The notes below the pieces were generated by a model. It was not told the DNA's origin and did not search any database. It saw only the letters and a program-made list of their open reading frames with translations. A DNA stretch of 64,000 nt from Candidatus Shapirobacteria bacterium (GTDB taxonomy: Bacteria > Patescibacteriota > Microgenomatia > UBA12405), in contig JBAYUY010000001.1 of assembly GCA_041674845.1 (NCBI GenBank), positions 235,432 to 299,431 of the forward strand, in the 5' to 3' direction. The position numbers were made by a program, and so were the translations under genes. Below are positions 36,272 to 62,473 of the stretch, piece after piece (positions within the stretch are counted from its first letter, which is position 1; each line of letters begins with the position of its first letter).

Positions 36272-36283
36272 AATTTTCCTTCT

Positions 36284-36374: not shown

Positions 36375-36457
36375 TAATAATTATACTATTTTTGAGTCAT
36401 AATTTCACTAATTTCTCCTAATAAACCAATAAAAATTAAATAGTTATTAAAGTAAAA

Positions 36458-37281: not shown

Positions 37282-37526
37282 AGTATTTCGTAAATCCTTG
37301 CCTTGAGAGTTTTGATCTGATCAAAATGATTACAAGCATCAACCAGTAAATTTTTATTCCAATAGTTTGAAATCTGTTCACGGAGTTGGGGAGAATCTTC
37401 AAAGCAAAAAACACAATTCTTTTCAGTTACATTCTTTTCAATATCTATAATCGGAAACGACAAAGAAATAGCACTTGCTAGGGCCAACGAATTAGTTTTA
37501 TAAATATTTAAATCTGTATTATTCAC
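37278..37526 (-). CDS. DUF5659-like small protein
   Basis: 82 aa. The pattern YKTNSLALASAI...FCFEDSPQLREQISNYWNKNL...LKARIYE resembles a family common on phage/plasmid DNA (from memory, unverified). Confidence 0.45.
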   Translation of the reverse strand: MNNTDLNIYKTNSLALASAISLSFPIIDIEKNVTEKNCVFCFEDSPQLREQISNYWNKNLLVDACNHFDQIKTLKARIYEIL

Positions 37527-37586
37527 ATACAGATTAAAGCAAATTTAATGGAATTACAGGCTACATTTTCTCGTCGGTTTTTTGTC

Positions 37587-38372
37587 TCACTTTTTATAAA
37601 AAAGTGATTTTATCTCTTCTTCGGCACGGTTATATTCTTTTTCTATTGTTTTTGGCATTTTATCAATATTTTTATCCATACCTAATTTGGTAAAAAATAC
37701 TTTATTTTTTATTTTTTGATTTTCCCTTCTTGCTAAAACAATCATTATCTTTTCGCCCGATAAAGTTAGATCATTCTTTTTTGGTAATAATGAAAATATT
37801 TCTGACAATCGTTCTCTATTGTCTCTAATAAAACTAATTACAGCCTCTGGTTTAGTATAGGATGATATTTTTATAGAAATTGATGGTTGTTTATCGGTCT
37901 TATTCAAATCAATATCATTCTCTCCAAAATATGATTGAATTGAAATTTCTTTTGAATCGCTCATATTTCCATATAATGGTAAAGCTAAATTTGCCAGCAA
38001 AATTGATCTAAGCTGATTTGAAACAAATGAATCACATACAAATTCTTTTAGTATTCTATTAATTTCCAATTCAACTCTCTTATCAAAGTCGTCGTTAATT
38101 TTTTTTATTTTTGGATTAAAAGCATCTAGATTTCGGTAGGGTGGATTAATTTTTATATAGTCCTCGTAGCTTAAGCCGTTTTCCGATATACCAATTTTAA
38201 TTCTTGTTTTTAAAATCTCTTGTTCAAATTCAGTGTTAATTTCCAAACCTCGGATTTTCCAATAATCATTCAAAGTAAAACCAGGTAATCCTTTAAGGTT
38301 ATATCTTCTAATTTCGCTCCATTTTGAGAGAGGTGTAATAGGGAGACTACCCACCAAAAAATTGATTTTCAT
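37587..38372 (-). CDS. hypothetical protein
   Basis: 261-aa ORF, first gene of the coupled minus-strand operon. No motif recognised. Confidence 0.55.
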   Translation of the reverse strand: MKINFLVGSLPITPLSKWSEIRRYNLKGLPGFTLNDYWKIRGLEINTEFEQEILKTRIKIGISENGLSYEDYIKINPPYRNLDAFNPKIKKINDDFDKRVELEINRILKEFVCDSFVSNQLRSILLANLALPLYGNMSDSKEISIQSYFGENDIDLNKTDKQPSISIKISSYTKPEAVISFIRDNRERLSEIFSLLPKKNDLTLSGEKIMIVLARRENQKIKNKVFFTKLGMDKNIDKMPKTIEKEYNRAEEEIKSLFYKK

Positions 38373-38427
38373 TTATATCTTTATATTTATATCTAGCCTA
38401 TTATCCCGCAAATTTACTGTTTAGCAA

Positions 38428-38892
38428 TTAGTTATAGTTTAGAGCTATTAAAATCACTGAAACTAAAAGAATTATTCCGCAAACAATCATTACGATTTTT
38501 TCACTTTTTTTAGAGTTTTTAATTTCGCTTGCCTCTTTTGGATATATACTAGCCAGCACTCCAGGATGTTTAATTATGAAAGGTATTACTCCTATTAAGG
38601 AATAAAAGGAATATAAGACCACTGGTGATGTCTCTGGGAGGTAATTTAATACCTGCAACGATAATCCAAAGATCATAATGCCACCACAAAGTAGGATTGA
38701 TACAAAAGCTAATTTTTTACTCCAATCTCCAGATTTAAATCTTTCCTGTTTTAATAATCCATAAACTGCAAAAGGAAATAATAAAGCCAATATTAAAACT
38801 AAAACGGAGCCTAATCCAACCGTTAATTTACAACTTAATAATTCAGGATTGGCTTTACAGGCTTGATTAAATTGATAACTAATTACACTCAT
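38428..38892 (-). CDS. hypothetical membrane protein (4 TM)
   Basis: 154-aa ORF with four hydrophobic helices. It is divergent from the XRE gene. Confidence 0.5.
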   Translation of the reverse strand: MSVISYQFNQACKANPELLSCKLTVGLGSVLVLILALLFPFAVYGLLKQERFKSGDWSKKLAFVSILLCGGIMIFGLSLQVLNYLPETSPVVLYSFYSLIGVIPFIIKHPGVLASIYPKEASEIKNSKKSEKIVMIVCGIILLVSVILIALNYN

Positions 38893-38911
38893 TTTTTTTG
38901 TTTTTAAACTA

Positions 38912-38969
38912 TTAACCTTAGGTTATGAAAATATACCATATTTAGGTTAAAAAATTAACCCACGGTTAA
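38912..38969. promoter_or_regulatory. palindromic operator candidates TTAACC-N3-GGTTA(A/T) in the divergent promoter region
   Basis: TTAACCTTAGGTTAT is at 38912-38926 and TTAACCCACGGTTAA at 38955-38969. GGTTAAAAAATTAACC lies between them at 38945-38960. Confidence 0.5.
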
Positions 38970-39004
38970 TAAACTTTTTTTGGTAGGATTGGTAACTTGT
39001 TTCA

Positions 39005-39223
39005 ATGGAAATAAGAAAAGTTACTAAAAAAGATATTCAGTTTGGAAGAAAACTCCAACGAGTAAGAAAAAAGACAGGGATAACTCAAGAAAAACTATCT
39101 GAATTGACGGGCCTAAGTACTACTTTCATTGGTCTTATGGAAACTGGCAGAAGAAAACCAAGTTTAGAATCTCTTCAAAAAATTGCTTCAAAATTGAAAG
39201 TAAATATCAAGGAACTATTCTAG
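39005..39223 (+). CDS. XRE-family helix-turn-helix transcriptional regulator
   Basis: 72 aa with LQRVRKKTGITQEKLSELTGLSTTFIGLMETGRRKPSLESLQKIA, a canonical HTH_3. Confidence 0.85.
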   Translation: MEIRKVTKKDIQFGRKLQRVRKKTGITQEKLSELTGLSTTFIGLMETGRRKPSLESLQKIASKLKVNIKELF

Positions 39224-39239
39224 TAATCTAGATTTTTTA

Positions 39240-39254
39240 TTAACCCATGGTTTA
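39240..39254. promoter_or_regulatory. third copy of the operator-like palindrome
   Basis: TTAACCCATGGTTTA lies between the XRE stop and the next gene start. Confidence 0.4.
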
Positions 39255-39272
39255 TAATTGAGTTAATAAAAT

Positions 39273-39569
39273 ATGAATTATAAATATCTTGGTTTGACTT
39301 GCGGTATTTTACTTTTAATTGCTATTCCAAATTGGCTACCATACGGCTTTTACATAATTTTACGATGGATCATTTCTGCTGCCTCAGTTTTGTTAGCCTT
39401 AAACTTTAAAGATAATAAAAATCAAAAACTCTCATTTACTTTCTGGGCTGTCGCTATTCTTTTTAATCCGATAATCCCAATCTACTTAAACAAAGATATT
39501 TGGATATTAGTTGATTTAGTAGTTTCAATTCTATTTTTCTTTATTTCTTCAAAAATAAAATCAAAATGA
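39273..39569 (+). CDS. small membrane protein (DUF6804-like)
   Basis: 98 aa with 3 TM helices and motifs WLPYGFYIILRW and ILFNPIIPIYL. Confidence 0.5.
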   Translation: MNYKYLGLTCGILLLIAIPNWLPYGFYIILRWIISAASVLLALNFKDNKNQKLSFTFWAVAILFNPIIPIYLNKDIWILVDLVVSILFFFISSKIKSK

Positions 39570-39958
39570 TTCTTTATATTATATTTTTAATTATTGAATC
39601 TCTTTATATTTATTATGTTGGAAAATTTGGTTTAAAAGATTCAATTGATCAACCAGCAGGTTATTTAAAAGCCAAAAACTTATTATCTTATTGTAAATAT
39701 GGGGTTGTGATTCTAATGATATTAATAAGTCATTTTTGGTTACTAATTCCAATTTATATTTTTTATGATTATCTTGAATCAAGAATACTTTTTTCATTCT
39801 CTAAAAAGAGAGCTATTAAAAACATGGTCAGAATACTAACAGGTGACGGAAAAACAGAAAAAGAATTAGGGACAAAACCGATGGAAATTGAAGATGCTCG
39901 CCGAGTTGCCCCAGAAATGGTTGAACAAAATATTAAATCTGGTAGCTACATAATTTAA
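39566..39958 (+). CDS. hypothetical membrane protein
   Basis: 130 aa with 2-3 TM helices then a charged tail. 4-nt overlap with the upstream gene. Confidence 0.5.
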   Translation: MILYIIFLIIESLYIYYVGKFGLKDSIDQPAGYLKAKNLLSYCKYGVVILMILISHFWLLIPIYIFYDYLESRILFSFSKKRAIKNMVRILTGDGKTEKELGTKPMEIEDARRVAPEMVEQNIKSGSYII

Positions 39959-40311
39959 TTTTATAGTCTTAATTAAATTGGGTTTCTGTTAAAAATCATT
40001 GGTTGTTTGGGTAATATTTAAATTTAAAATTGCTTAATCACTATCAATAAAAACAAACAATAAAATAGGATAAAAATAAAGTATTTGAATACAAAATTTA
40101 CTCAATTAAACAAAAAGAAAAAATATCCAAAACAAAAATAATTATTAAAAAATAAAAAGTCACCAAGTAACTAACTTCTGAAAAAAAATATATCAGTCAG
40201 ACTTTTTAAAACCTATTTTCATTCTGACAGGTTGGCCTTTAGTCCCAGCTCTACCAAAAGTGATGGGTGGGGTAGTGGTTCTGTAAATTATTTCTATATT
40301 AATTCAACCAT

Positions 40312-41400
40312 TTACTTAATAAATCTTATTTGTAGGTTTAATTTTATAAAGAGAGATCCGTTTTCTTTATAGACAACACCAAATTTATGACGAGTAGTAC
40401 TAGGGGTATCAAAACGAGTATTTTTAAATAGGTATGTTCTAAAAGCATCAGCATTATAGACATGATAACAAACTATTTCTCCATCTTCTCGGACAATAAT
40501 GTAACCACCATGTGCTCTTATACATCCATCCCATGCTGTGTTTGGAACCATTCCTAAAGCAACATCATAAAGAAGATTTTTAATCTTAAATTTATAATCA
40601 TCTTTTGTTAAATCAAAATTCAAAATATCAGTTTTTTCATCTCCCAACCTATCCACTAATTCTTGTAAAGATGATCCCTTATTTAAGAAATATGTTAATA
40701 ATAGCTGAGCAACAATTTCTGGAAGAACAGCATCAATACGACGGAGATTTCTTTTAAAAACATCAGAACTTATACCATAAAACGAAAAACTACCACCAGA
40801 TGCGATGATGGAAGAAAGTCTATCTCTAACTTTGGATTTAGTATCAATAGAATTAATTTTATTAATATTATTTTCATCTAAACCATTTATTTTAAAAATG
40901 AAATTGGTAGAGGGTGAAGCATTTAATAATGTAGAAGCGGCCCCAATCATTGATTTTATACTGAAGCCAACAGTTGGTTCTGTTCCAGTATAATGATCAT
41001 GAATTTTTAATATAAGATCTTCTTTCTTAGTATTACCAGCATTCAATCGTTTAGCATGAAATTGTTCCATTAATTCACTTGCTTTTGGAATTTCAAAAGA
41101 AGACTGTTCTCCGTCTTTTATTAATTTAAATATTTCAGCGACTTTTGACTTTAAATCAGAACTATTTACCAATGCAATTTCTGTACCAGCTTGAATAATT
41201 TTTACTTGATTCTCACTATTTAATTCATATTCAACTTCACCAATATTTTCTTCACGAATAATTTTAAGAACTGGATAAAAAATATCTTTAATTTTATTTA
41301 AATTTTCATCAGCAGCATCTAATCTTTTTTCTGCAAGCAATTTAATAAAAGTGTAAAATTCGCTCCATTCTCCTTTGTTCCCCGTAAGATTATTTGTCAT
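40312..41400 (-). CDS. type II restriction endonuclease, HpaII-like
   Basis: 362 aa. The N-terminal GNKGEWSEFYTFIKLLAEKRLDAADENL resembles the HpaII endonuclease family as I recall it. 11-nt overlap with the upstream C5 methyltransferase gene. Confidence 0.55.
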   Translation of the reverse strand: MTNNLTGNKGEWSEFYTFIKLLAEKRLDAADENLNKIKDIFYPVLKIIREENIGEVEYELNSENQVKIIQAGTEIALVNSSDLKSKVAEIFKLIKDGEQSSFEIPKASELMEQFHAKRLNAGNTKKEDLILKIHDHYTGTEPTVGFSIKSMIGAASTLLNASPSTNFIFKINGLDENNINKINSIDTKSKVRDRLSSIIASGGSFSFYGISSDVFKRNLRRIDAVLPEIVAQLLLTYFLNKGSSLQELVDRLGDEKTDILNFDLTKDDYKFKIKNLLYDVALGMVPNTAWDGCIRAHGGYIIVREDGEIVCYHVYNADAFRTYLFKNTRFDTPSTTRHKFGVVYKENGSLFIKLNLQIRFIK

Positions 41401-42274
41401 ATTTTTTTAAAGTTTTAACAATTTCTTTTGCTGTTGCTCTAATAGCATCAACGGCAACACTATTACCAAGCTGTTTCATTGCTTGATTTTTAGTAACTGG
41501 AAATACAAAATCATCAGGAAACCCCATCATTTTTTGAGCTTCTTCAACTGTAATTCTATGAGGCTTTCCATCAACTAAATAAGTATCCCAATTATGTCTA
41601 TCATTTAATCCAGAAGCTTTTCCTCCAACTCTCAAAGTATAACCGATTTTTTTATCGCATTCTCCATTAAATATTTCTGGTAAAGTTATTTTTAATTTAG
41701 ATGGATCAGGAAATTTAAATTCTATATTTTTGTCTCTAAATCCAACCATATACAATCTAGGGCGATGTGTTGGTAACCCATAATCAGATGCTTTAATTAT
41801 TTGATAATTAAATGAATATCCTAAATCTTTTATTATTTTTTCCATTACTCTGAAAGTATTTCCACCATCATGTGATTTTAAATTTCTTACATTTTCAATA
41901 AAAAAAGCCTTTGGTTTTTTAATTCTCAATATTTCTGCAATATTAAAAAAAAGTGTTCCTCTTGTTTCATTAAACCCTTTTTTCTTACCTGCCTGAGAAA
42001 AAGGCTGACAAGGGAATCCTCCTGTAAGAATATCAAAATCAGGAATTGTTTCTGGATCAATTTTTGTTATATCTCCAGCAAAATTTCCATTTTTAAAAAC
42101 CTTAGGTGATATTTTTTTAAAATTTGCTTCATAAGTTTTTCTTGCAGGATCATCCCATTCTGATACCCAAACACATTCAGCACCTACATTATGAAAAGCC
42201 AAATGAAAGCCTCCTATTCCAGCGAATAAGTCAATAAACTTATACTTTTTACCTTTGGCTTTGCCTTTATCCAT
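41390..42274 (-). CDS. DNA (cytosine-5)-methyltransferase
   Basis: Motif I FAGIGGF, motif IV GGFPCQPFSQAG (catalytic Cys), motif VI ENV, and QLGNSV near the C-terminus. Confidence 0.9.
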   Translation of the reverse strand: MDKGKAKGKKYKFIDLFAGIGGFHLAFHNVGAECVWVSEWDDPARKTYEANFKKISPKVFKNGNFAGDITKIDPETIPDFDILTGGFPCQPFSQAGKKKGFNETRGTLFFNIAEILRIKKPKAFFIENVRNLKSHDGGNTFRVMEKIIKDLGYSFNYQIIKASDYGLPTHRPRLYMVGFRDKNIEFKFPDPSKLKITLPEIFNGECDKKIGYTLRVGGKASGLNDRHNWDTYLVDGKPHRITVEEAQKMMGFPDDFVFPVTKNQAMKQLGNSVAVDAIRATAKEIVKTLKKYDK

Positions 42275-42310
42275 TAAACGATTATACAGTGAAAAAACAA
42301 GTTAGACTAA

Positions 42311-42523
42311 GTGATTAAAAACATTAAAGATATGAAGAATAAAGAAAATAAAACAATTTCAAAAAGTGAAAAAGAAATAAAAAATTACTTTAGACAAAAT
42401 TATAATTGGGATATGACAGAAGATGATTATCAGGAAGCTTCGCAATCTTTATATTATCTAGGTAAAGCAATTTATTTTTTTCTAAAAACAAATGGGATAG
42501 TTTTCTCTGGTAAAACAGAGTAA
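42311..42523 (+). CDS. small hypothetical protein
   Basis: 70-aa ORF (GTG start; alternative ATG at 42332), divergent from the R-M pair and upstream of the KAP NTPase. Confidence 0.35.
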   Translation: MIKNIKDMKNKENKTISKSEKEIKNYFRQNYNWDMTEDDYQEASQSLYYLGKAIYFFLKTNGIVFSGKTE

Positions 42524-42562
42524 AAAGTGTTAAAGTTATCTAACCTGCCAATATAAATAAAA

Positions 42563-45385
42563 ATGGCAGAAATATCTCTAAAATCAATAAAACTCCCAAG
42601 AACACCTTCGTTGAATTTAAGTGGTCTTTTCTTAAAAAATAAATCTAAAAAGAAAGAAAAAACAGTAAAGTTAAAACAATATATTTTACCATCAGATGAA
42701 TCAGCTTGTGACTATAGTCATGAAGATCTGTTTCAAAGAGAAAACATTTCTCTACAAATATCAGATTCAATTTTAAATTCATCTGGTCAAATGAATTTTC
42801 TAGTTTCTGGCAAATGGGGAATAGGTAAAACCAGTATTCTTAATGGTATTGAAAAAGATTTAAAAGGAAAAAACATTTCAATAATGTGGTTTTCTCCATG
42901 GAGATATTCTTCAAGCGATGAAAAATCAAATGCTATATCCAGGGCATTTTTAGTCAATCTTGCTGAAATTCTGAACAAACCACAAGAAATAAAAAATCTT
43001 TATTTAAATCGTAAAATTGAAACCCATAGAAACATCTTTAGTCAGTTTTTAATCTGGATTTCACTTTTTTTTGTTACTGCCTTGTTTATTATTGCATTGA
43101 TATATTTTGGCAGTTTAATTTTTGGATTATTTCCAATGTTTAACTGGAAAATTCCTAGAATATACAATGAACTTTGGAATAACTTAATAAATATTTATGA
43201 GTCGGAAGGCGGAAGAAATAAAGTCAATGTTATTTTGGCATTAATAGGATTATTATCCATACCAAGTATTGGTGATTTTTTTATGAGCCGTACTAGACAA
43301 TCAGCAGAAATATCAAAAGAAATTTCACCAGAACAACTTGAAAAATCATTTCAAAACATAATTAATAATTCACTAAAATTTAATTTTCTTCAAAAATTTA
43401 TAAGTTGGTGGGAAACAAGTGTTGAAGAAACATTTTTATCTTTTTTAGGAAAACCATTAACCATTTTTTTAAACAAAAACATATTAAAACCATTCAAACT
43501 AAAAAAATTAGTGGTTTTTGTTGATGACTTAGATAGGTGTAATAATAAAGAAATAAATGAGTTTTTGACCAGTATGAAAACTTTTTTATTTGATAAAAGG
43601 GTTTATTTTGTAATAGCAGCAGATATTGAAGAAATAGCAAAAGTAAACAAAGAGGGAAGAGACTATTTGAGAAAAATAATTCAAATTGATTGGAGTGTTC
43701 CATACTTAGAAGAAGAAAGTATAAAGAGTTTAATAAAATATTTAGTTAAAATTTCAAAAATTGAAGACAAAACGATAAATATTGAACAAATTATAAATTA
43801 CAGTCGCTATTCACCAAATCCAAGAAAGATAAAATACTACTTTAGAAGAACATTGTTTATATTAAATCACTTAGAAAGAACAGGTGGAAGTTATTCTTCT
43901 TCAGATATAACAATGTTGTATAAATTAATTTTACTGTCAGATTTAGATGAAAAACTTTTTGATCGGCTAGCAAATAATAGAGAATTATATTTCAAAGCAG
44001 AGAGTGAGCCAGGGAATCATCTTTTATACGAATCAAAATTTAAGGAAGGTAAGGAAATCAGTGCTAAACATATTCAAGGGAAATTCCTAAAAATAATAAA
44101 AGATATTCCAAGAACGAGTGATATAACAAAAGACTGGTCGGAAATAATATCTTTAATTTCTTCTATTGAAGGTGAAGCTGATGTTTCACTGGATTTTATA
44201 AAATTAGCTGGAGGTAATATTTTAAACGATGCAATATCGTATCTTAAAAAAGTTTCTTATGATTTTGAATCGTTAATTAAAATTCTTGTTTCTGACATAA
44301 ATCAGGGAATAGGGAAAATAGCTATTTATTTACCTCCACCAGAAGACCTAAATAAAGCCCCAGATAATTTACTTGAAATAGGAAATAAAATAATAACTTT
44401 ATGTAAATCATTAACTGTCAAAGAGTATCGTCAAGATCATGAAGAGTTTTGTTCTGATATTGCAGGACAATTTTTCCAATCACTAGAAAAACTTAATAGC
44501 CAAATAATAATTCAATATTTATGGAATTTTCAGTTAGATAATAGTTGTAGAGATGCTATCCTAAATCTTTTTTCTATTGAAAAAATGGCACCAAAAACTT
44601 GGTTTATTACTTTAATAAGTGATCCTTATTTTAATGATTTTTCTAAGATTGAAGAAATTACTAAAATTCTAGATGAAAACAAAGTTGGTTATTATGCGAT
44701 GAATCCAGAATTATCTTCAAAATTTGTTTCTTTTATTGATACTAATGCAGAGCAAATTCTTTCAAAAATAGAAGAAACACCTGATTTAGTTGATTTAGCT
44801 GATTTGGAAAATAAATTTGCTGAACTAAATTTAGAAGATGAGAGTAGAAATAGAATTTTAAAAATTATTTTAGATAATAATTTTGAAATAAGAGAAACAG
44901 TTTTTAACGATTTGCTTGAGTATGAGGATTATTTTAATCTTGGACAAGTTGTAGGCCGAATTTATTCTAATCAAGTTTTAAAAAATCAACTTAAAAAACA
45001 TATTATTGAGAATATTAATCTTGAAGCTAGTGGTGTTTTTGAGTTTATAAAAAGTATCTGGGAGATAGAAAAAATGAACGGATTAGATCTATGGGATAGT
45101 AATCTTTTATCTTCTATTAATATTAAGATTAGTCAAATTACTAACCAGTCTCTAAAAAATGAATATTTAAAATCTCTAATTTCAATATCAACCCAAAATA
45201 TTGAAGAAAATAAAGCCTCTATTCTTTGTCAATTTTATGAATCATTAATAAAACAGGCAGATTCAACCAAAGGAATGCTTTTTAGTGAATTCGGCAAATC
45301 TCGTTTAAGAATCAAAATAAATAAACTATGCGGTATTAAAAAAGTTATTAATTCAATTAAAAATGAAAGAAAGACTCAAAAATAA
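42563..45385 (+). CDS. KAP-family P-loop NTPase with membrane helices inserted in the NTPase domain
   Basis: 940 aa. Walker A is GKWGIGKTS (aa 83-91). Hydrophobic helices lie at about aa 162-192 and 221-238. Walker B is LVVFVDDLDRC (aa 316-326). A long helical C-terminal region follows. Confidence 0.8.
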   Translation: MAEISLKSIKLPRTPSLNLSGLFLKNKSKKKEKTVKLKQYILPSDESACDYSHEDLFQRENISLQISDSILNSSGQMNFLVSGKWGIGKTSILNGIEKDLKGKNISIMWFSPWRYSSSDEKSNAISRAFLVNLAEILNKPQEIKNLYLNRKIETHRNIFSQFLIWISLFFVTALFIIALIYFGSLIFGLFPMFNWKIPRIYNELWNNLINIYESEGGRNKVNVILALIGLLSIPSIGDFFMSRTRQSAEISKEISPEQLEKSFQNIINNSLKFNFLQKFISWWETSVEETFLSFLGKPLTIFLNKNILKPFKLKKLVVFVDDLDRCNNKEINEFLTSMKTFLFDKRVYFVIAADIEEIAKVNKEGRDYLRKIIQIDWSVPYLEEESIKSLIKYLVKISKIEDKTINIEQIINYSRYSPNPRKIKYYFRRTLFILNHLERTGGSYSSSDITMLYKLILLSDLDEKLFDRLANNRELYFKAESEPGNHLLYESKFKEGKEISAKHIQGKFLKIIKDIPRTSDITKDWSEIISLISSIEGEADVSLDFIKLAGGNILNDAISYLKKVSYDFESLIKILVSDINQGIGKIAIYLPPPEDLNKAPDNLLEIGNKIITLCKSLTVKEYRQDHEEFCSDIAGQFFQSLEKLNSQIIIQYLWNFQLDNSCRDAILNLFSIEKMAPKTWFITLISDPYFNDFSKIEEITKILDENKVGYYAMNPELSSKFVSFIDTNAEQILSKIEETPDLVDLADLENKFAELNLEDESRNRILKIILDNNFEIRETVFNDLLEYEDYFNLGQVVGRIYSNQVLKNQLKKHIIENINLEASGVFEFIKSIWEIEKMNGLDLWDSNLLSSINIKISQITNQSLKNEYLKSLISISTQNIEENKASILCQFYESLIKQADSTKGMLFSEFGKSRLRIKINKLCGIKKVINSIKNERKTQK

Positions 45386-48770: not shown

Positions 48771-49085
48771 CTATATATTAATTTTGGTAATTTTAATGTC
48801 GGTTAATTGAGCACGAAAACCCATGGTTTTACGGTAACGAGATTTTGCTTTGAATTTGGAAACACGAACTTTGTCGCCTTGGTATTGATTAACAATTTGG
48901 TATTCGACTGAAGCGTCTTTTACGTTTGGATTACCAATTTTGATTTTGTCATCATCAACAATTAATAATACCGAATCAATCTTTCCAGTTGAGTCTGTTT
49001 CACCTTCAATTTTGTCAACTGTAATTATTTGATTTTCCTCAACTTTGTATTGAGTGCCAGATGTGGCAATAATTGCGTATTTCAT
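48771..49085 (-). CDS. rplU: 50S ribosomal protein L21
   Basis: MKYAIIATSGTQYKVEENQII... The ATG at 49085 overlaps the rodA stop (ATGA). The longer ORF-track start (49223) lies inside rodA. Confidence 0.8.
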   Translation of the reverse strand: MKYAIIATSGTQYKVEENQIITVDKIEGETDSTGKIDSVLLIVDDDKIKIGNPNVKDASVEYQIVNQYQGDKVRVSKFKAKSRYRKTMGFRAQLTDIKITKINI

Positions 49086-50086
49086 AAGTTTGAGTATATC
49101 ACACCAAGTGAAAAAAGCAGAGCCATGAGGGATGATCCCCCAACAGATAAAAATGGTAAGGGAATACCTGTTACAGGAAAGACTCCAATATTCATACCAA
49201 TGTTTATTGAGGCTTGAATCCAAATTTCAAAAAAAATACCTAATGTAAATAAAAATAACGGTTTGTTGTGTTTGGTACCGTATGCTTTGTTAAGTAATGT
49301 TGTTAGCAAAACTATGTAGGCAAAAAAGATTAGAATAATGGATAGTGAACCTAGTTCTTCGGCAGTAGCAGCAAAAATAAAATCAGTGTGTTTTTCGGGT
49401 AAAAACAATAGCTGTCCTTGAGTGCCTTGACGATAACCTTTGCCAAAAAAACCTCCTGATCCGACTGCTATTTGTGACTGTATTAAATTATATCCTTGAC
49501 CCAATGGGTCATGTTGAGGATTGATAAAAGTTTCGACTCTATCTTTTTGGTAGTCGTGAATAAGATACTTCCAAACCAAGGGGGAGGCCATTGTGAGACA
49601 GACAACTCCAACAATGGCAAGCTTAAGTAATTTGGGAGAGTAAAGCAGAATGGGGATTAATAAAACAAGTATCGTAATAGCTGAACCAAGATCAGGTTCC
49701 ATTGCTACTATTGCCACTGGAATAAGGTGTAAAAGTGGAAATGGTCCTGAAGCTAAAAATAACATTAATGGGGGTTTGACAATTTCACTAGGTTGGATGG
49801 TAACTGGTCCTATGTTTAACCACCGTCGTGACCCTCTTGTAATATTTCCCAATATAATCGGTAATATTAAAAAAATGCATGATCCAATAAAAAATATCCA
49901 ACGGCTTTTTTGATTTAGATTCGGATTAATTTGAGTCCCGATGAAAAATAATCCAAAACTTATTGTCCAGGCAATAATTTGTTTTACCAATAGCTGTGGT
50001 GCTAAAGAAGAAATCATCAATAAATTTAGACACAAAAAAATTAGTAGTGAAGATACAACTGGAAATAATCGATGATTTAGCAACAT
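49082..50086 (-). CDS. rodA: SEDS-family peptidoglycan polymerase, RodA-like
   Basis: 334 aa, polytopic, with EPDLGSA, PEKHTDFIFA and GIPLPFLSVGGSS motifs. Confidence 0.75.
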   Translation of the reverse strand: MLLNHRLFPVVSSLLIFLCLNLLMISSLAPQLLVKQIIAWTISFGLFFIGTQINPNLNQKSRWIFFIGSCIFLILPIILGNITRGSRRWLNIGPVTIQPSEIVKPPLMLFLASGPFPLLHLIPVAIVAMEPDLGSAITILVLLIPILLYSPKLLKLAIVGVVCLTMASPLVWKYLIHDYQKDRVETFINPQHDPLGQGYNLIQSQIAVGSGGFFGKGYRQGTQGQLLFLPEKHTDFIFAATAEELGSLSIILIFFAYIVLLTTLLNKAYGTKHNKPLFLFTLGIFFEIWIQASINIGMNIGVFPVTGIPLPFLSVGGSSLMALLFSLGVIYSNL

Positions 50087-55512: not shown

Positions 55513-56541
55513 TTAGAGTGTTTTGATGAGTTTTAGTAGACTATAGTTTGTATTTGGTTTAGTTATCGTTTTTGTTTTTATTTTTGCCAATTTATTTATT
55601 GATTTAATAAGTGTTGAAGATGTTAATTTTATTTCGGGAATAATAATTGTTTGTGGTAAGGATTGCTTGACAAGTTCAGCATTAATATCTTGTTCATTTT
55701 GTTGACTTATTTTTAGAGGAATTAAAATAGCTTTTTTATTTAAGGCAATTATTTCTTGGCAAGTATTTGCCCCAGCACGACTGATAATAAGATTGGCATG
55801 ATTTAAAACCCATCCAATATCATCAATATAATTTATTGGTAAATAATTAATTGATGGAGATAAATTTTGATTTCCTGACTGATGAATTATAAAAAAATTT
55901 TTTGTTAATGTAGGTAAAATTTTGGTTATAATTTTATTTAATACCATTGATCCTTGGTTGCCTCCAGTAATATAAATAATTGGTTTTTTGATTATTAACT
56001 TATCGAAAAATGTTGATTTGCTATTAAATACTTGGTTCCTAATTAAATTTCCTGTGACTATAAATTTGTTATTTTTAATATTTGTGGGAAATGATAAAGC
56101 AACAATGTTTGAAAATTTTGAATTTATTTTTGTAGATAAACTGAGGGTGCTGGTTTGTTCGTGGGTAATTGAGGGAATTTTTTGTAGATATGCGTTAAAA
56201 ATTACTGGCACTGATATGTAGCCGCCAAAAGAAACGACAACGTCTGGTTTTATTTTTTGAATTAATTTGTATATTTGAAATAATGATTTTATGGTTAAGG
56301 GTATACCAGCTATGGTGTTGGGTAACCAACGTCGATCTAATTTTCCACTGTCAAAACCATAGAATTTAACTCCTAATTTAGGAATTGCCAAAGATTCGGT
56401 GGAGACGGATGTTTTTTCGTGTGAATTAAAATTTCGACCTATATATATAATATCCCAATCTATATTATCTTCTTTTAGTTGATTAATTAATTCGATGGCG
56501 GGAGTGAGGTGTGTGCCGGTAATTAATATTTTTTTTGTCAT
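55513..56541 (-). CDS. murG: undecaprenyldiphospho-muramoylpentapeptide beta-N-acetylglucosaminyltransferase (GT28)
   Basis: GT28 C-terminal motif ISRAGANTCQEIIALNKKAILIPL. The N-terminal Gly-rich loop is degenerate (ITGTHLTPAIE). The start is either ATG 56541 (MTKKIL) or 56559, and either overlaps the ftsW 3' end. Confidence 0.7.
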   Translation of the reverse strand: MTKKILITGTHLTPAIELINQLKEDNIDWDIIYIGRNFNSHEKTSVSTESLAIPKLGVKFYGFDSGKLDRRWLPNTIAGIPLTIKSLFQIYKLIQKIKPDVVVSFGGYISVPVIFNAYLQKIPSITHEQTSTLSLSTKINSKFSNIVALSFPTNIKNNKFIVTGNLIRNQVFNSKSTFFDKLIIKKPIIYITGGNQGSMVLNKIITKILPTLTKNFFIIHQSGNQNLSPSINYLPINYIDDIGWVLNHANLIISRAGANTCQEIIALNKKAILIPLKISQQNEQDINAELVKQSLPQTIIIPEIKLTSSTLIKSINKLAKIKTKTITKPNTNYSLLKLIKTL

Positions 56542-57592
56542 GAGTATATTTTCCTTCAATATTTACAATAAAACCAGTGGCAATCATGATTGACAGTAAA
56601 GATGATCCCCCATAAGAAATAAATGGAAAAGGAACACCTGTGAGTGGAATTAGTGCAACTATAGCTGAGAAGTTAATTAATGCTTGATATGCTATCCAAC
56701 AGGCAAAAGTAGAAACTAATACTTTCTCAAATTGATTTTCAACTATGTTGGCGAGTTTAAATAAAAATGAAACAAATGATAGGTATAACGAAGTTAGAGC
56801 AAAAAGGCCAATGAATCCTGTTTCTTCGCCGATTATAGCCAAAATTGAATCAGTACTAATTTTTGGTAAAAATTTGTATTTTTGTTCTGAATTGGCAATC
56901 CCCTTGCCCGATAATCCTCCGGCGGATAGTGAAATAATAATTTGTTGACTATGATAATTCAAATTGTCATCTTTTTGGGTATTAACTAATGTGTCAAATC
57001 TAGCTTTTCTGTATGGTGAAGTAAAAATTAGTATTGATCCAAGTAGTGAAAATAATAGAAATAAAATAAATATAGGAAATAGCTGTCCTCCTGACAGGTA
57101 ATAAGATGAAACAACAATGGCGGCAATTAGTATGGCGGTGCTTAAGTTTGGTTCTATAACGATCAAAAAAAGTGGTGGTAATAAAAAAATTAATAGATGT
57201 TTGAACCCTGAATTATTTTCACTTGTAAATAACGCAGGAAAAAATATAATGGCAGCTAATTTAAAAAATTCTGATGGCTGTAAATTAAAAAAACCAAAGT
57301 TAATCCACCGACTGGCACCAAGTGCTTTTTGGCCTATGCTTGGGATTAATACTATGATTAGTAATGCTATTGAAGCCAAATATATGGTAAAAGAATGTCG
57401 ACGGACGAAATCAAGGTTTATTTTTGAAGTGATAATAGCAGAAATTATGCCAAGTATTATCCAAAATATTTGTTTACGAATAAAAAAATTTGGATCGCCT
57501 AAACTTTTTTGGGCTTCAAAAAGAGTAGAAATTGATATAAAAAATAATCCAATTATGGTCAAAGATAATGTATATGCCCAGGTTTTAGACAT
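56483..57592 (-). CDS. ftsW: SEDS-family cell division protein FtsW
   Basis: 369 aa, polytopic, with EPNLSTA, PKISTDSILA and GVPFPFISYGGSS. Located in dcw context. Confidence 0.8.
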   Translation of the reverse strand: MSKTWAYTLSLTIIGLFFISISTLFEAQKSLGDPNFFIRKQIFWIILGIISAIITSKINLDFVRRHSFTIYLASIALLIIVLIPSIGQKALGASRWINFGFFNLQPSEFFKLAAIIFFPALFTSENNSGFKHLLIFLLPPLFLIVIEPNLSTAILIAAIVVSSYYLSGGQLFPIFILFLLFSLLGSILIFTSPYRKARFDTLVNTQKDDNLNYHSQQIIISLSAGGLSGKGIANSEQKYKFLPKISTDSILAIIGEETGFIGLFALTSLYLSFVSFLFKLANIVENQFEKVLVSTFACWIAYQALINFSAIVALIPLTGVPFPFISYGGSSLLSIMIATGFIVNIEGKYTHDKKNINYRHTPHSRHRIN

Positions 57593-58607
57593 TTATTTTA
57601 TAGTTATGTTCCTTGCTAATTATTACTCCGTTTTTGTCTCGCTTTGTTAATTCTGATCCGACTATTTTTTTGTTGTCAAATCTTTTTTCGCTTATAATTT
57701 TTTGAGGAGAAGTAAATTCGAGTAAGTGATAATAAAATAACGGAATAATATCGGCTTTTAATTCAATTTCGGTATAAAAGGCAAACGAAGCAGTAAGGCG
57801 AGGATTGCATTCGAGTAAGTATACTTTTCCTTTGGAAACAAAAAAGTCGAGACCAAAAAAGCCACGATATTTAAGTTTTTTTAAAATTTTGCCAAAGGCA
57901 ATAGTAATTTCTTTTACTTGTTTAGTTATTTTTATTGAGGCATTGCTTGGCCATTGACGACCGACAGTGGCAAAAGGATTGTTGGTATATTCTTTTAATC
58001 CTGTAAATTGGAGTGCTGGAGGACTTTGTAGCAATCCCGTTGTTGTCATACAACAATTGTTTAGGAGAGTGTAACCTTTTAAAAATGGTGTAAATTTGCA
58101 CAATATTCCATTAGGAATAATTGTTGGGTCATATTTTTGAATTAATTTGGTGCTGTTGCCTGCCCAACCAAAGTGTGTTTGGGCAATTATTTTTGGGCCA
58201 TACTTGTTAAACAACTTGTCAATATTTTGTTTGGTGTATGGGGCGATGATATATGGTATATGTGGAATTTTGTCGACAATACTGGGGAATTTAATTTTGT
58301 CTTCGAGAAGCCGATTTAAAGATGCTAGATTTGAAACTAAAATCCAATTATTTTGTTTGCATAAAATATCAATTTTGGCAGAGGGTTTGAACGGAATTAT
58401 GGCAGCCTGGTGGCCTGAGATGGTCGTAATTTTTTTTATATAATCAATGGTCGAGGGTTGTGATAATAAAAAACCACTATTTTTTTGAGATAAATTTGGA
58501 TCAAAAATTGAATAAAAATTTTTTAGTTTTGGACATTTTATATCAAGGTTTTGGTCGACAGTAAGAAAGAAAAAGTCGATGGGTAAATTGTTGATTATTT
58601 TTTCCAT
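57585..58607 (-). CDS. ATP-grasp domain protein (not a canonical Ddl)
   Basis: 340 aa with the C-terminal ATP-grasp signature FFGLDFFVSKGKVYLLECNPRLTASF. 8-nt overlap with ftsW, and 1 nt from the upstream PLP enzyme gene. Confidence 0.65.
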   Translation of the reverse strand: MEKIINNLPIDFFFLTVDQNLDIKCPKLKNFYSIFDPNLSQKNSGFLLSQPSTIDYIKKITTISGHQAAIIPFKPSAKIDILCKQNNWILVSNLASLNRLLEDKIKFPSIVDKIPHIPYIIAPYTKQNIDKLFNKYGPKIIAQTHFGWAGNSTKLIQKYDPTIIPNGILCKFTPFLKGYTLLNNCCMTTTGLLQSPPALQFTGLKEYTNNPFATVGRQWPSNASIKITKQVKEITIAFGKILKKLKYRGFFGLDFFVSKGKVYLLECNPRLTASFAFYTEIELKADIIPLFYYHLLEFTSPQKIISEKRFDNKKIVGSELTKRDKNGVIISKEHNYKINV

Positions 58608-58608
58608 A

Positions 58609-59409
58609 TTATCTTTTTGCTCCGGTTAAAATTATGACAGGAAAAAACCCTAGGTTGACTTGTGATTTTATTTTGTTTAACCCTGCTAGTGCCAAGGCAC
58701 CTTCAGTTGAGGTAATAATATTGTTGGCTATTAAATAATTTTGACTTTGGATAATTTGTTTGTTTTGAATGACGATTCCTTGTCCTTGATGGTCGTTTAT
58801 GGTTTTTATTATTTTAGTTTTTAATGGAATTAATTTTACTCCAAGGGCATCGGTAATAGTGGATTTTTCGGGAATAAAGTCATGATCAAATATTGATGCA
58901 ATAGGACAATGAGAAGCTGGTTGGACGGCAAATATTGGAATAGAGTTTGGTATTTTTTGGGATATGCCGAGCAAGGTAGTTCCTGAACCAACTGGAACAA
59001 AAATGGATGAAACTTCGGGTAATTGTTTTATTATTTCTGTAGCAATTTTACTGTATCCTCGAAGTGCAGTTGGGTCCGTTGATTGACGAAGTAGGTATGA
59101 CCGATTTTCTTTGGCAAACTTGAAGGCATCAGAAATTGGTCGAGATGACACAATATAATTGGCGATTAGCTTTAGTTTTGATTTGTCAGTATGGGGTGAA
59201 ACAAATATGGTTAAATTTATGCCGTATTTTCGACAAAAATATTGGGCCGATATTGCTGCATTGCCGGTAGAAGAAATTACGGCTGATAGAAATTTGTGTT
59301 TAACTAAGTTTTTGACTTGAATTTCTAAGCTTCGATCTTTGGCACTACCAGTTATGTTTAGATCTTCTCGTTTGAAATAGACATTACCAATTTTTACTAG
59401 AGGTGTCAT
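58609..59409 (-). CDS. fold-type II PLP-dependent enzyme (cysteine synthase / threonine synthase superfamily)
   Basis: 266 aa with the PLP-lysine motif NITGSAKDRS and the glycine loop VGSGTTLLG. Confidence 0.65.
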   Translation of the reverse strand: MTPLVKIGNVYFKREDLNITGSAKDRSLEIQVKNLVKHKFLSAVISSTGNAAISAQYFCRKYGINLTIFVSPHTDKSKLKLIANYIVSSRPISDAFKFAKENRSYLLRQSTDPTALRGYSKIATEIIKQLPEVSSIFVPVGSGTTLLGISQKIPNSIPIFAVQPASHCPIASIFDHDFIPEKSTITDALGVKLIPLKTKIIKTINDHQGQGIVIQNKQIIQSQNYLIANNIITSTEGALALAGLNKIKSQVNLGFFPVIILTGAKR

Positions 59410-59423
59410 ATAATAGATATATT

Positions 59424-59591
59424 ATGAAGCAAACTGATCAAAAAATCATGTGTCCTGATTGTGGGACAGAAATTAAAGGTGAAAATGTTTTAAGTGTGGG
59501 TGATATTTTGGAATGTCAGGAGTGTGGGACTGAAGTAGAGTTGTTGTCCCTTGACCCACTTAAGTATCAGTTGCTAGTAGAAGAGAAATAG
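59424..59591 (+). CDS. LysW-like zinc-ribbon amino-group carrier protein
   Basis: MCPDCGTEIKGENVLSVGDILECQECGTEVELLSLDPLKYQLLVEEK follows the LysW pattern CPxCG-x-E...GdilxCxeCGxExEvxxLDPL plus an acidic tail. The ORF track start (GTG 59403) overlaps the divergent PLP gene. Confidence 0.6.
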   Translation: MKQTDQKIMCPDCGTEIKGENVLSVGDILECQECGTEVELLSLDPLKYQLLVEEK

Positions 59592-59594
59592 GAA

Positions 59595-59873
59595 TTATAT
59601 TCTTTCTCCTGAGGGATAAAATATTGGTCTGGCATTTAAATCGCGTGTGACCTCTAATAGCCTGTCCTTACCCTTAAGTTTAACTAAAAACTTTCCGTGT
59701 TCATATTGATGTGCTGCGAACTGATTCATGTGGTGCATTTTTTCTTCAATATGTACAATATCAACTACAGTACTTGATTCTTTTTCAATAAGATTTTCTA
59801 AAATTGCAATATCTGTCGGGTCTAAATTTCGTCGATAATTACATCCGATTACGGAGCATCTTAGCGTTGTCAT
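59595..59873 (-). CDS. hypothetical protein
   Basis: 92-aa ORF with no motif recognised. Confidence 0.45.
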   Translation of the reverse strand: MTTLRCSVIGCNYRRNLDPTDIAILENLIEKESSTVVDIVHIEEKMHHMNQFAAHQYEHGKFLVKLKGKDRLLEVTRDLNARPIFYPSGERI

Positions 59874-59907: not shown

Positions 59908-60960
59908 TTATAATTTTGCCGAAATGGAGGCGACATAAGATTTGATGGCGTCGTATTGATTTATACCTGAAGTTGGGATTAAAATTGATTGTCGGTTTGA
60001 AGTAGAAATCATTAAAACATTTTTGTCAGTAAGGGCATAGGATTCAGTTTTGTATTTGGAAAATTCGTAGACTTTAAGAAGATATTTTTCAATGTCGGAG
60101 GTAGTTATATCTGTATAGAGGTGATATTTTAAAGTTTTGATAATAGGGAATATTTTTGTTAAATTGTTGGGATTAATAATTTTGTCACGAATGGCAATAA
60201 TTACTTGTCGTTGACGCAATCCTCGATTAAAGTCACCACCATCTGTTGGAGAATGACGAGAACGGGCGTATTTGAGTGCAGTAATACCGTCTAAATGTGT
60301 TGTTCCAATACTAAAATTTAATGTTTCATAGCGACACGTATATTGTTGAGCTAGTATATCCCCTGACATTGTTGCTTCGATAGCTTTTATATCATCTGGA
60401 GACTTGTTACAGGTGTCGGTTGTGCCAATATCGAGTGGGTACCAAGGGTCTTGCCAATTTTTTACGATTTTTAAGTCGATACCACCCAACTGGTCGATAG
60501 CTTTGGTAAAACCATTAAAATCGAGGGCCAAATAATAATCAATATTAATGCCAAGAATTTCTCCAACTTTTGACTTCGTGGTGATTGAATCGGTAGATGG
60601 ATATAAATAATTTATTTTGGCAAATTTTGGAACTGCGCTGTCAGTTGAAACATTTATCCATAAATCACGAGGAATAGATATTAAATTAATTTTTTGATCG
60701 TGAGGACGAACTTGGGCAACCATTATAGAGTCAGTTAGACTGCCACCGTCATGAGTACCACCACCATAGCCAAGTAATAAAATAGAAATTGGTCGATCGG
60801 GATCAGGTGTTGGGGTGGGAATAATTGTCGGTATTGATTTGATAATTGGAATAGTTGTTTTTGTATTAATTAAATTTATAATTTGCCAAATAAATAAACC
60901 TAAAATTATTGACAAAATAATTACACTAAAAATTAGGATTTGTTTTTGAGAAAATTTCAT
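59908..60960 (-). CDS. LytR-CpsA-Psr (LCP) family cell-envelope polymer transferase
   Basis: TM anchor plus ISILLLGYGGGTHDGGSLTDSIMV...LISIPRDLW...YARSRH. Confidence 0.8.
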   Translation of the reverse strand: MKFSQKQILIFSVIILSIILGLFIWQIINLINTKTTIPIIKSIPTIIPTPTPDPDRPISILLLGYGGGTHDGGSLTDSIMVAQVRPHDQKINLISIPRDLWINVSTDSAVPKFAKINYLYPSTDSITTKSKVGEILGINIDYYLALDFNGFTKAIDQLGGIDLKIVKNWQDPWYPLDIGTTDTCNKSPDDIKAIEATMSGDILAQQYTCRYETLNFSIGTTHLDGITALKYARSRHSPTDGGDFNRGLRQRQVIIAIRDKIINPNNLTKIFPIIKTLKYHLYTDITTSDIEKYLLKVYEFSKYKTESYALTDKNVLMISTSNRQSILIPTSGINQYDAIKSYVASISAKL

Positions 60961-61457
60961 TGATTTAATCGCCAGAAACCGTCATTAGGAATATCAGATA
61001 TATTTTTTGTCTCGATGACAACGCCTTTGGCTGCAACTGAAGAATGAACGTAAGTGATTAGATCTTTATCAATATTTAATACTAATAAAACATGTTTGCC
61101 GTCTTTTTGACGAATTAAATCGTTTGGTTTTAACGTTTTTACTTTTTTGGAAATTGGCTTTGAAGTTAACATGTTGGCTGAGGTTTTGCGGACATCAACT
61201 TTTAGTTCTAACAAATGGCAAACGAGTCCGGAACAATCAATACCTAAATGATTTTTTTTCTGAAAATTATAAATTTGTTTTGGTGTTAATTTTAATAAAT
61301 TAATATTTTGAATATTGGCAAATTCAATGGTCTGTAGTGCAATTTCTTTGGCACTACCTTTGCCAACTAGTGCATTGTTTTTTGATAATACCTTGTGTCG
61401 ACCGATATTAATAAAATATGGTAGACCTAAATAATTGTTTAATTTATCCCCAACCAT
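60957..61457 (-). CDS. NlpC/P60-like cysteine peptidase
   Basis: Catalytic Cys context HLGIDCSGLVCHLL and a later His (HVLLV). The start is uncertain (ATG 61457 or ORF-track 61523), and both overlap the mraY 3' end. Confidence 0.55.
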   Translation of the reverse strand: MVGDKLNNYLGLPYFINIGRHKVLSKNNALVGKGSAKEIALQTIEFANIQNINLLKLTPKQIYNFQKKNHLGIDCSGLVCHLLELKVDVRKTSANMLTSKPISKKVKTLKPNDLIRQKDGKHVLLVLNIDKDLITYVHSSVAAKGVVIETKNISDIPNDGFWRLNQ

Positions 61458-62473
61458 AAGGCAAAAATAGCTAAAATAATAGTCGCAAGCCAAGCTCGAA
61501 AAACAATTTTTGGTTCTTCCCATCCAATTTTTTGTAAAGTTAGGTGGATTGGGGCAGCAATAAATATTTTCTTTTTTAAATATATTTTTGAGAGTATCTG
61601 TAGTCCACTGCTTACACCTTCGATAATAAAAGGTAAACCGACAATCATTAATGGAATTACTTTACCAAGCAGTACTGCGATGACAGCGATCGTGGCGCCA
61701 AATGACAACGATCCAACATCGCCAAGCCAGAGTCTAGCAGGATATACATTAAAGTAAAGAAATGCTATTAGGGCACCAATCCATAAAGAAATAAATAACG
61801 AAATAGGAGTGTCAAGACTAGTGCCGGCCAAAATCCAAAATGCAAAAAGAGCGATAATAAGAATGCCACAAGAAAGACCGTCGAGCCCATCGGTAATATT
61901 AAAAAAATTGGCAAAAGTAGTAATAATTAAGGTTGATATGGGGATAAAAAATAAACCAAGATTGACAGCACCAATAAATGGAATGTAAATAAAATTAATT
62001 CCAAGTCGGAAATATATTAACAATGATATAAAACCTGCAATTAAAAATTGCAGAATTAGTTTGTGCTTAAGCCTTAAACCAAAAAAACCTGATTTTTGAA
62101 AATTAAAAAACTTAAGGATGTCATCATATAATCCAAGTAATCCAAAACTTATAAAAGTTATAAAAATGACTTCTAACTCTAAATTTAATTTGTAATTGCT
62201 GGATATAAAAATTTTACTAAATTGCAATAAAGGCAAAAGACAGGCAAAAAGTGTTGTGACAGAAAATATTATTAACAATCCTCCACCGACTGGAGTACCG
62301 GTTTTACTGTTGTGAAATTGATCAAAAATCGGGGTACGATTGTTTTGAATATCTAGTGTTTTTTGGTTTTGACGTTGAAATTTTAGTTTGTATAACAAAT
62401 TGATAAATGGCACAACCAAAATACTGGTGATAATAAATGAAAATAGTAATAGTCCAAGATAAAGATGTACCAT
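61439..62473 (-). CDS. mraY: phospho-N-acetylmuramoyl-pentapeptide transferase
   Basis: 344 aa, polytopic, with NITDGLDGL, GLLGLYDD and LGDVGSLSFGA motifs. Confidence 0.9.
   Translation of the reverse strand: MVHLYLGLLLFSFIITSILVVPFINLLYKLKFQRQNQKTLDIQNNRTPIFDQFHNSKTGTPVGGGLLIIFSVTTLFACLLPLLQFSKIFISSNYKLNLELEVIFITFISFGLLGLYDDILKFFNFQKSGFFGLRLKHKLILQFLIAGFISLLIYFRLGINFIYIPFIGAVNLGLFFIPISTLIITTFANFFNITDGLDGLSCGILIIALFAFWILAGTSLDTPISLFISLWIGALIAFLYFNVYPARLWLGDVGSLSFGATIAVIAVLLGKVIPLMIVGLPFIIEGVSSGLQILSKIYLKKKIFIAAPIHLTLQKIGWEEPKIVFRAWLATIILAIFALWLGIN

Follow-up and report, generated by a model that had tools for sequence, protein, structure and literature searches.

The window analysed here, a 64-kb (64,000-nucleotide) AT-rich stretch (~33% G+C) of a 949-kb contig of a Candidatus Shapirobacteria bacterium, carries in its division and cell wall (dcw) gene cluster a small module consisting of a zinc-ribbon protein related to the amino-group carrier protein LysW, a fold-type II pyridoxal phosphate (PLP) enzyme, an ATP-grasp ligase and an NlpC/P60-type cysteine amidase (Table 1). 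The open reading frames (ORFs) that a preliminary description of this DNA had laid out, namely a 55-aa zinc ribbon, a 266-aa PLP enzyme and a 340-aa ATP-grasp enzyme, are all present in the sequence, with a gap of 1 nt between the PLP gene and the start of the ATP-grasp gene and an 8-nt overlap with ftsW, with which the ATP-grasp gene is probably co-transcribed. The zinc-ribbon ORF is divergent from the PLP gene, their start codons being 14 nt apart. Homologues are found in Candidatus Shapirobacteria, Woesebacteria, Gottesmanbacteria and other Patescibacteria, and we propose, as a reading to which we give an even chance of being right, that the four proteins form a LysW-type carrier-protein pathway built into the dcw cluster of Microgenomates and related bacteria of the Candidate Phyla Radiation (CPR).

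Table 1. Genes of the module and its immediate neighbours (window positions)
Feature	Position	Strand	Remarks
ftsW	56483-57592	-	overlapped over 8 nt by the ATP-grasp gene
ATP-grasp ligase	57585-58607	-	340 aa; PRK06524-like group
Fold-type II PLP enzyme	58609-59409	-	266 aa; motif ITGSAKDRS
LysW-like zinc ribbon (proposed carrier)	59424-59591	+	55 aa; ATG at 59424, stop at 59591
92-aa ORF	59595-59873		between the amidase gene and the LysW-like gene
LCP (LytR-CpsA-Psr) gene	59908-60960		between the amidase gene and the LysW-like gene
NlpC/P60-type cysteine amidase (proposed release enzyme)	60957-61457 (ORF to 61523)	-	166 aa (188 aa)
mraY	61439-62473	-	Glycos_transf_4 match; adjoins the amidase gene

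The 55-aa ORF translates as MKQTDQKIMCPDCGTEIKGENVLSVGDILECQECGTEVELLSLDPLKYQLLVEEK and gives a protein (MKQTDQKIMCPDCG...LLVEEK) with the C-terminus LLVEEK; an alternative GTG start at 59403 would add seven residues (62 aa), and the sequence quoted in the preliminary description corresponds to the 47 aa that follow an internal Met. A chance ORF is ruled out by conservation in more than 100 loci and by the matches to the LysW profile and structures. The earlier statement that the small protein follows the LysW pattern stands for its globular part and not for its tail. On the one hand, it passes the Pfam profile PF21344 (Zn_ribbon_LysW; 40.2 bits, gathering score 27) and matches the LysW structures of Thermus (3WWL, E=1.5e-8, residues 9-54 aligned to residues 4-48 of the 54 of LysW) and Thermococcus (5K2M, E=5.5e-6), and by these comparisons its homology with the LysW globular domain is genuine. 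On the other hand, it remains below the curated equivalog cut-offs (41.8 against 53.2 for TIGR01206; 25.1 against 75 for NF041070) owing to a shorter tail that has -E-x-K at its end where LysW has EDWGE, its acceptor motif. The new ending is itself highly constrained: all 75 orthologues from species-representative genomes have Lys as the last residue and Glu at -2 (LIEEK in 45, LVEEK in 21, ETK or EQK in a few), with exactly 21 residues between the last zinc-binding Cys and the end in 74 of the 75. In the more distant metagenome set, 33 of 37 complete LysW-like sequences end in K, mostly as EEEK, which brings the -E-x-K ending with a terminal Lys to 108 of 112 sequences. A terminus that never varies, carried on an arm of constant length, would be expected of a carrier or of a C-terminally modified protein; it differs from the LysW acceptor motif.

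The ATP-grasp enzyme passes only the generic profile ATP-grasp_3 (PF02655; 27.8 bits against a gathering score of 23.2). Among named families it comes closest to NF005096/PRK06524, which is uncharacterised and bears the label "biotin carboxylase"; the match is at 1e-18 and below the cut-off of 684 bits (67 for the window copy, up to 194 for fuller relatives), and the profile of the family reaches solved structures only at E ~3e-3. Its AlphaFold2 (AF2) model has a predicted local distance difference test score (pLDDT) of 91.7, and all of its top 50 Foldseek matches are PurK, biotin carboxylase, PurT or PurD, with template modelling (TM) scores of 0.58-0.66 and E=1e-16 against PurK and biotin carboxylase; RimK, LysX and Ddl are absent from these 50, and the profile matches include no RimK/LysX model. 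The Mg/ATP residues E266-x-N268-x-R270, D254 and K104/K106 are invariant in the family, and together with the model they assign to this protein an ATP-grasp fold with its Mg/ATP-binding residues, in an enzyme that is neither LysX/RimK nor Ddl. As a Ddl, the ligase was rejected by its scores of 13-17 bits with Ddl profiles against cut-offs of 24-310 (Dala_Dala_lig_C, 16.9 against 24; TIGR01205, 16.5 against 245), and also by the structural neighbours just named. Furthermore, nine loci (L084, L100, L102, L105, L120, L121, L130, L133 and L136) encode a canonical Ddl (E 1e-36 to 1e-61 with E. coli DdlB as the query) upstream of the module, at a distance of 3-5 kb and in the order MurB - MurA - Ddl - MurF - MraY - amidase - carrier - PLP - ligase - FtsW. 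Therefore, the ligase of the module is not the D-Ala-D-Ala ligase of the cell and has another job, and this coexistence bears out the preliminary expectation that it is no ordinary Ddl or MurT.

The PLP enzyme matches PALP at E=3.7e-41, and threonine synthase (ThrC) is its best relative in both sequence and structure: the best NCBIfam matches are short archaeal-type ThrC models, and the profile of the family finds ThrC first among the solved structures (2ZSJ at 2.4e-32, followed by 6CGQ, 2D1F and 1UIM). The PLP-binding Lys and the S-S-x-G-N loop are invariant, and full-length relatives of 300-330 aa keep the N-terminal region of threonine synthase (GIWKY...LSL.EGNTP), from which the window copy has lost ~40 residues at its N-terminus. 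Judged from the alignments, the enzyme is derived from threonine synthase with retention of the fold and of the PLP-binding Lys. As a threonine synthase proper it fails the profiles, with equivalog scores far below the cut-offs (90.3 against 358; 26.8 against 167), and both ThrC motifs are altered, with the Ser of NSxNPxR kept and its Arg lost, STGNT changed to S(S/T)GNA by replacement of Thr with Ala, and a new invariant Arg placed two residues ahead of the Ser. NSxNPxR and STGNT presumably form the substrate-phosphate site of ThrC; if these positions do bind phosphate, the distal pocket of the enzyme would have been remodelled.

The fourth component was missed by the preliminary description, whose "minimal" pathway has to be enlarged by an NlpC/P60 amidase that could fill a LysK-like release role. 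The window copy matches the Pfam NLPC_P60 profile weakly (E=0.011; 16.2, cut-off 23), and its orthologues are assigned to PF00877 and named "NlpC/P60 family protein" by NCBI. Two residues, Cys75 and His122, never vary, and position 138 is occupied by His, Asp or Glu. Alignment with Spr/MepS matches up both the Cys and the His motif. The best PDB matches of its AF2 model (pLDDT 93.8) in Foldseek are NlpC/P60 domains (8ER5, RipB, LytE and RipD; probability 1.0, TM 0.4-0.5 over the catalytic domain), and on this model the protein is of the NlpC/P60 type, with a papain-like fold and a Cys-His-(His/Asp) triad. The catalytic residues are intact in all three enzymes of the module. Regarding the start of the amidase gene, the longest ORF opens with an ATG, the first one, that lies inside mraY, and it shares 85 nt with the 3' end of that gene; the tblastn matches overlap in the same way at nearly all related loci. 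In L085, a locus of the source organism, the gene was called from an internal Met (166 aa), and 61457 is the probable start.

The four components also differ sharply in charge: the LysW-like protein is acidic (pI 4.2 for the window copy, median 4.15), whereas the median pI values of the three enzymes are 9.2, 9.5 and 9.5, with the soluble neighbours MurA, FtsA and FtsZ at 4.8-6.3. LysW is recognised electrostatically by its partner enzymes, and the present proteins show in their composition the same complementarity of an acidic carrier with basic enzymes.

A profile search of 1.84 billion representative proteins gave 2014 relatives of the ligase, and the module is present in ~100 distinct genomes or contigs. 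Two sets of loci were annotated with hidden Markov models, namely 80 loci of species-representative genomes and 47 metagenome loci picked with the profile of a distant ligase subgroup (five sequences); the LysW-like and PLP genes were counted where at least 1.5 kb lay upstream of the ligase gene, and the NlpC/P60, MraY and FtsW genes where there were at least 3 kb upstream and 1.5 kb downstream. Co-occurrence is strict. A LysW-like gene lies within 5 kb of the ligase gene in 73 of 73 genome loci and in 28 of 30 metagenome loci, and the PLP gene is near it in 72/73 and 28/30, respectively, where the three loci scored without it are two that carry it beyond the 1.5-kb limit (L090 and L094) and one with a short copy (L058). 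An NlpC/P60 gene is found within 4 kb in 60 of 61 genome and 16 of 17 metagenome loci, MraY within 6 kb in 61/61 and 12/17, and FtsW within 2 kb in 61/61 and 11/17.

The LysW-like gene typically sits directly ahead of the PLP gene in divergent orientation, and two gene orders recur, MraY - amidase - carrier(-) - PLP - ligase - FtsW and carrier(-) - PLP - (methyltransferase-like) - ligase - amidase - (MraY), in both of which mraY is the conserved neighbour of the amidase gene. The trio of the preliminary description is co-conserved far beyond one syntenic lineage: in other contexts (L083, L088 and L094-L099) the LysW-like gene has moved along with its two partners, as in the Gottesmanbacteria locus L083, where the module stands between murD and prfB without ftsW, and in L088, with the order MurD-like - LysW-like(-, ending ITEEK) - PLP - ATP-grasp::NlpC/P60. 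The association with peptidoglycan genes (mraY, ftsW, murD) that had been noted before likewise persists through these rearrangements. Natural fusions join the PLP enzyme to the ATP-grasp enzyme (protein P0300) and the ATP-grasp enzyme to an SH3b-like and an NlpC/P60 domain (P0303, P0314 and P0377), and the fused enzyme P0314, encoded in L088, is still accompanied by an -EEK carrier.

The pathway that we propose would work as follows. The acidic 55-aa zinc ribbon would present its fixed-length C-terminal arm ending in -E-x-K, and the basic ATP-grasp enzyme would activate a carboxylate as an acyl phosphate and join arm and amino acid through an amide, by loading an amino acid onto the arm or by re-loading Lys onto a ...E-E end, as tubulin tyrosine ligase and RimK act after Glu-Glu. 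The ThrC-derived PLP enzyme would then modify the tethered residue, either with the tethered amine as the nucleophile of a beta/gamma-replacement that gives a diamino-dicarboxylic amino acid resembling diaminopimelate (DAP), or by epimerisation of a residue tethered via its side chain. Finally, the NlpC/P60 amidase would cut the amide, freeing the product and regenerating the carrier, and the product would enter peptidoglycan precursor synthesis through the Mur ligases and MraY. The carrier function, the covalent loading, the order of the steps, the identity of the amino acid and product, and the link to peptidoglycan are what we infer from the genes and their conservation.

Several points weigh against this pathway. 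A LysX/RimK identity of the ligase is ruled out by both the profile and the fold searches, and the EDWGE-type tail with its terminal Glu acceptor is absent from the family, the alignment stopping at residue 48 of LysW. The classic LysW logic, with the alpha-amine tethered, cannot apply unchanged, because PLP enzymes of fold-type II require the alpha-amino-acid group of their substrate to be free. The covalent adduct on the carrier is itself a prediction. The only exceptions to the terminal Lys (L123, L131, L134 and L138) end in -EEKG, and these four make it slightly less likely that the terminal alpha-carboxylate plays a role. One locus (L129) has no LysW-like gene adjoining the module, and in another (L110) the ATP-grasp gene stands alone. 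Moreover, a single superphylum, in which synteny is strongly conserved, contributes much of the co-occurrence; an account based on synteny only loses weight in view of the second gene order, the copies that have moved and the fusions.

We suggest keeping in mind three variants of the tethering. In variant (a), the amino acid would be tethered by its alpha-amine, and a side-chain nucleophile would attack a PLP-bound aminoacrylate or vinylglycine to give a DAP-like diamino acid. In variant (b), the terminal Lys would itself be the substrate, encoded pre-loaded and re-loaded onto ...EE by the ligase, with its epsilon-amine as the nucleophile. In variant (c), an acidic amino acid would be tethered via its side-chain carboxyl to the Lys epsilon-amine and then epimerised. 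Among the three, variant (b) accounts best for the invariant Lys. Its fullest form would be the first carrier-protein pathway dedicated to peptidoglycan, in which Lys is re-loaded and epsilon-alkylated by the PLP enzyme and the amidase frees a lysinoalanine-like DAP surrogate, used as the wall cross-linking residue by CPR bacteria without DAP/lysine synthesis; this we regard as a long shot.

The closest known relatives of such a pathway are the LysW/ArgW systems (LysW-LysX-LysZ-LysY-LysJ-LysK of Thermus, Sulfolobus and Thermococcus, and the amino-group carrier protein (AmCP) clusters of Streptomyces), which share with the module the homologous zinc-ribbon globular domain, the acidic carrier with basic enzymes, and a ligase of the ATP-grasp fold, a modifying enzyme and a hydrolase encoded together. 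In contrast to these systems, the tail here is shorter by 7 residues, with -E-x-K in place of EDWGE at its end; a PRK06524-like ligase stands where those systems have RimK/LysX; kinase, reductase and aminotransferase are missing from the module, which has a ThrC-type PLP enzyme for modification; its hydrolase belongs to NlpC/P60 and is not the M20 enzyme LysK; and the setting is the dcw cluster of CPR bacteria. Gene content was surveyed over the 64-kb window and flanks of up to 10 kb, and the preliminary remark that no LysZ/Y/J/K-type genes lie nearby was confirmed, with LysZ, LysY, LysJ and LysK genes absent within ~10 kb in the window or L085. What would be new with respect to the AmCP systems is thus the acceptor motif, the ligase class, the partner enzymes, the genomic setting and the probable role, while a homologous carrier domain is already known.

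More distant parallels come from elsewhere. In CysO-CysM of Mycobacterium tuberculosis, a fold-type II PLP enzyme takes the C-terminus of a small carrier into its active site for reaction and a dedicated hydrolase frees the product, but CysO is ubiquitin-like, activated by adenylation and used as a thiocarboxylate, with no ATP-grasp enzyme. Glutathionylspermidine synthetase/amidase fuses an ATP-grasp-type amide ligase to a CHAP/NlpC-P60-type amidase acting on the same bond, comparable with the fusions P0303, P0314 and P0377, but it is a small-molecule system without carrier or PLP enzyme. In pearlin biosynthesis, a ribosomal scaffold peptide reportedly receives an amino acid at its C-terminus, where the residue is modified before a peptidase frees it, so that a residue is built on a carrier peptide and then released as proposed here; loading there, in contrast, proceeds via aminoacyl-tRNA and a LanB-like enzyme and belongs to secondary metabolism. 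Full-text literature searches, to whose coverage the 2009 amidoligase survey of Iyer et al. does not belong, returned no description of the module.

Of the other explanations, the one that survives best is that the enzymes act on free substrates or on UDP-MurNAc-peptide, with the LysW-like protein as an accessory subunit or regulator only; we consider it unlikely, with a modest chance of being correct. Here, the ligase would be an Asl-type branch ligase adding an amino acid to Lys-3, the PLP enzyme would make or racemise this amino acid, the amidase would edit the stem peptide, and the -E-x-K end of the carrier would perhaps mimic the iGlu-Lys of the stem peptide. The place of the module among peptidoglycan genes, by mraY, ftsW or murD, agrees with this, as does the ligase not being LysX-like. 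NlpC/P60 enzymes normally cleave gamma-D-Glu-Lys/DAP bonds, the ATP-grasp D-aspartate ligase Aslfm of Enterococcus faecium with its adjacent racemase offers a precedent, and the cluster also holds a Fem/ATE_C-like gene (L085:3083-3679), a hint of branched peptidoglycan of the Lys type. However, ThrC-type enzymes are not known racemases, and left unexplained are the invariant arm length and terminal Lys, the pairing of acidic with basic proteins, and the presence of a LysW-domain protein with the enzymes, whichever of the two gene orders is found and also where they are fused.

A second alternative, which we hold to be improbable, is a reversible C-terminal tagging cycle of the LysW-like protein itself, in which the ATP-grasp enzyme would add residues at -EE(K) and the NlpC/P60 enzyme would remove them; the outcome would be regulation of division or wall synthesis and not a metabolite. 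The encoded Glu-Glu followed by one residue resembles the -EEY of alpha-tubulin, and both tubulin tyrosine ligase/vasohibin and RimK/S6 pair an ATP-grasp ligase with a papain-like cysteine peptidase on a substrate ending in ...E-E-X, much as the ATP-grasp enzyme is fused to NlpC/P60 in P0303, P0314 and P0377. Pairs of this kind have also been predicted as add/remove systems for peptide tags (PMC3495828). Those cycles, however, regulate a protein and do so without a PLP enzyme, while the carrier here is a LysW-type zinc ribbon. In a tagging cycle the PLP enzyme would have nothing to do, yet its linkage is just as strict as that of the other components and P0300 joins it to the ligase; a target protein is not evident either. 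The last alternative, that the ATP-grasp and PLP enzymes are a non-orthologous replacement of D-Ala-D-Ala ligase and alanine racemase, as their place in the dcw cluster and the failure to find ddl, alr and murI in the 64-kb window or the cluster of the source organism might suggest, is hardly credible and was rejected in view of the canonical Ddl in the same cluster at nine loci, the low Ddl profile scores and the PurK/biotin carboxylase-like structure; MurI and Alr homologues were found neither in 1.5 Mb of loci nor in the window, which says little since these are flanks only.

The importance of the module lies in its hosts, given that CPR bacteria or Patescibacteria make up a very large share of bacterial diversity and have minimal biosynthesis and an essentially unknown wall chemistry. 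The module is conserved, under strong purifying selection, and occupies the usual place of murD between mraY and ftsW, and therefore it likely matters for the CPR envelope. If the carrier pathway is real, LysW-type carrier chemistry would extend from amino-acid and secondary metabolism to cell-wall synthesis, with a new acceptor motif (-E-x-K), a new ligase class (the PRK06524-like ATP-grasp enzymes) and new partner enzymes in the ThrC-type PLP enzyme and the NlpC/P60 release enzyme. The four small soluble proteins of the module are directly testable in E. coli, which is useful with hosts that are mostly unculturable.

Distant versions of the module carry additional genes or domains. A 171-aa protein similar to S-adenosylmethionine-dependent methyltransferases is encoded between the PLP and ligase genes in L129 (7441-7956), with similar gaps in L097 and L098; L090 (1315-3747) encodes an HExxH protein and a 496-aa unknown protein; and protein P0380 is a fusion of the ATP-grasp enzyme with a GNAT acetyltransferase. 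In many relatives from Shapirobacteria and Woesebacteria, the LysW-like gene is directly followed on the same strand by a gene for a MazG-like pyrophosphohydrolase of 102 aa (for example, L001:4697-5005 and L003:4656-4964), which is absent from the window.

In the source organism, the cluster has the order FtsI - MurE-like - Fem/ATE_C-like - MurC-like - MurA - MraY - p166/188 (the amidase) - LCP - orf92 - LysW-like(-) - PLP - ATP-grasp - FtsW - MurG - FtsA - FtsZ. The LCP gene between the amidase and LysW-like genes is seen in only one of 84 related loci (L006), and the 92-aa ORF has zero matches among the same 84; the two look like a lineage-specific insertion into the module, and the 92-aa ORF may not be a real gene. 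The Fem/ATE_C-like product, encoded just past the window end and also at L001:1-512, is a 198-aa protein with a weak match to ATE_C (arginyl-tRNA-protein transferase or Fem-like fold), whose gene is flanked by the MurE-like and MurC-like genes. It may act as a tRNA-dependent transferase for branch peptides.

Elsewhere in the window, a second SEDS-family (FtsW/RodA) gene lies at 49082-50086, just downstream of ileS and adjoining parB and a signal peptidase gene. The stretch 34679-45385 is low in G+C (26-28%) and encodes a large serine recombinase (34679-36271), an HpaII-type restriction enzyme with a C5-cytosine methylase (40312-42274) and a 940-aa KAP-family NTPase (42563-45385), and by this content it looks like an integrated mobile or defence island. 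Many of the contigs with the cluster (L012, L016, L017, L072 and others) are titled "uncultured Gammaproteobacteria bacterium" and one "Candidatus Methanoperedens sp."; given their CPR-type cluster, these are probably mislabelled or mis-binned assemblies.

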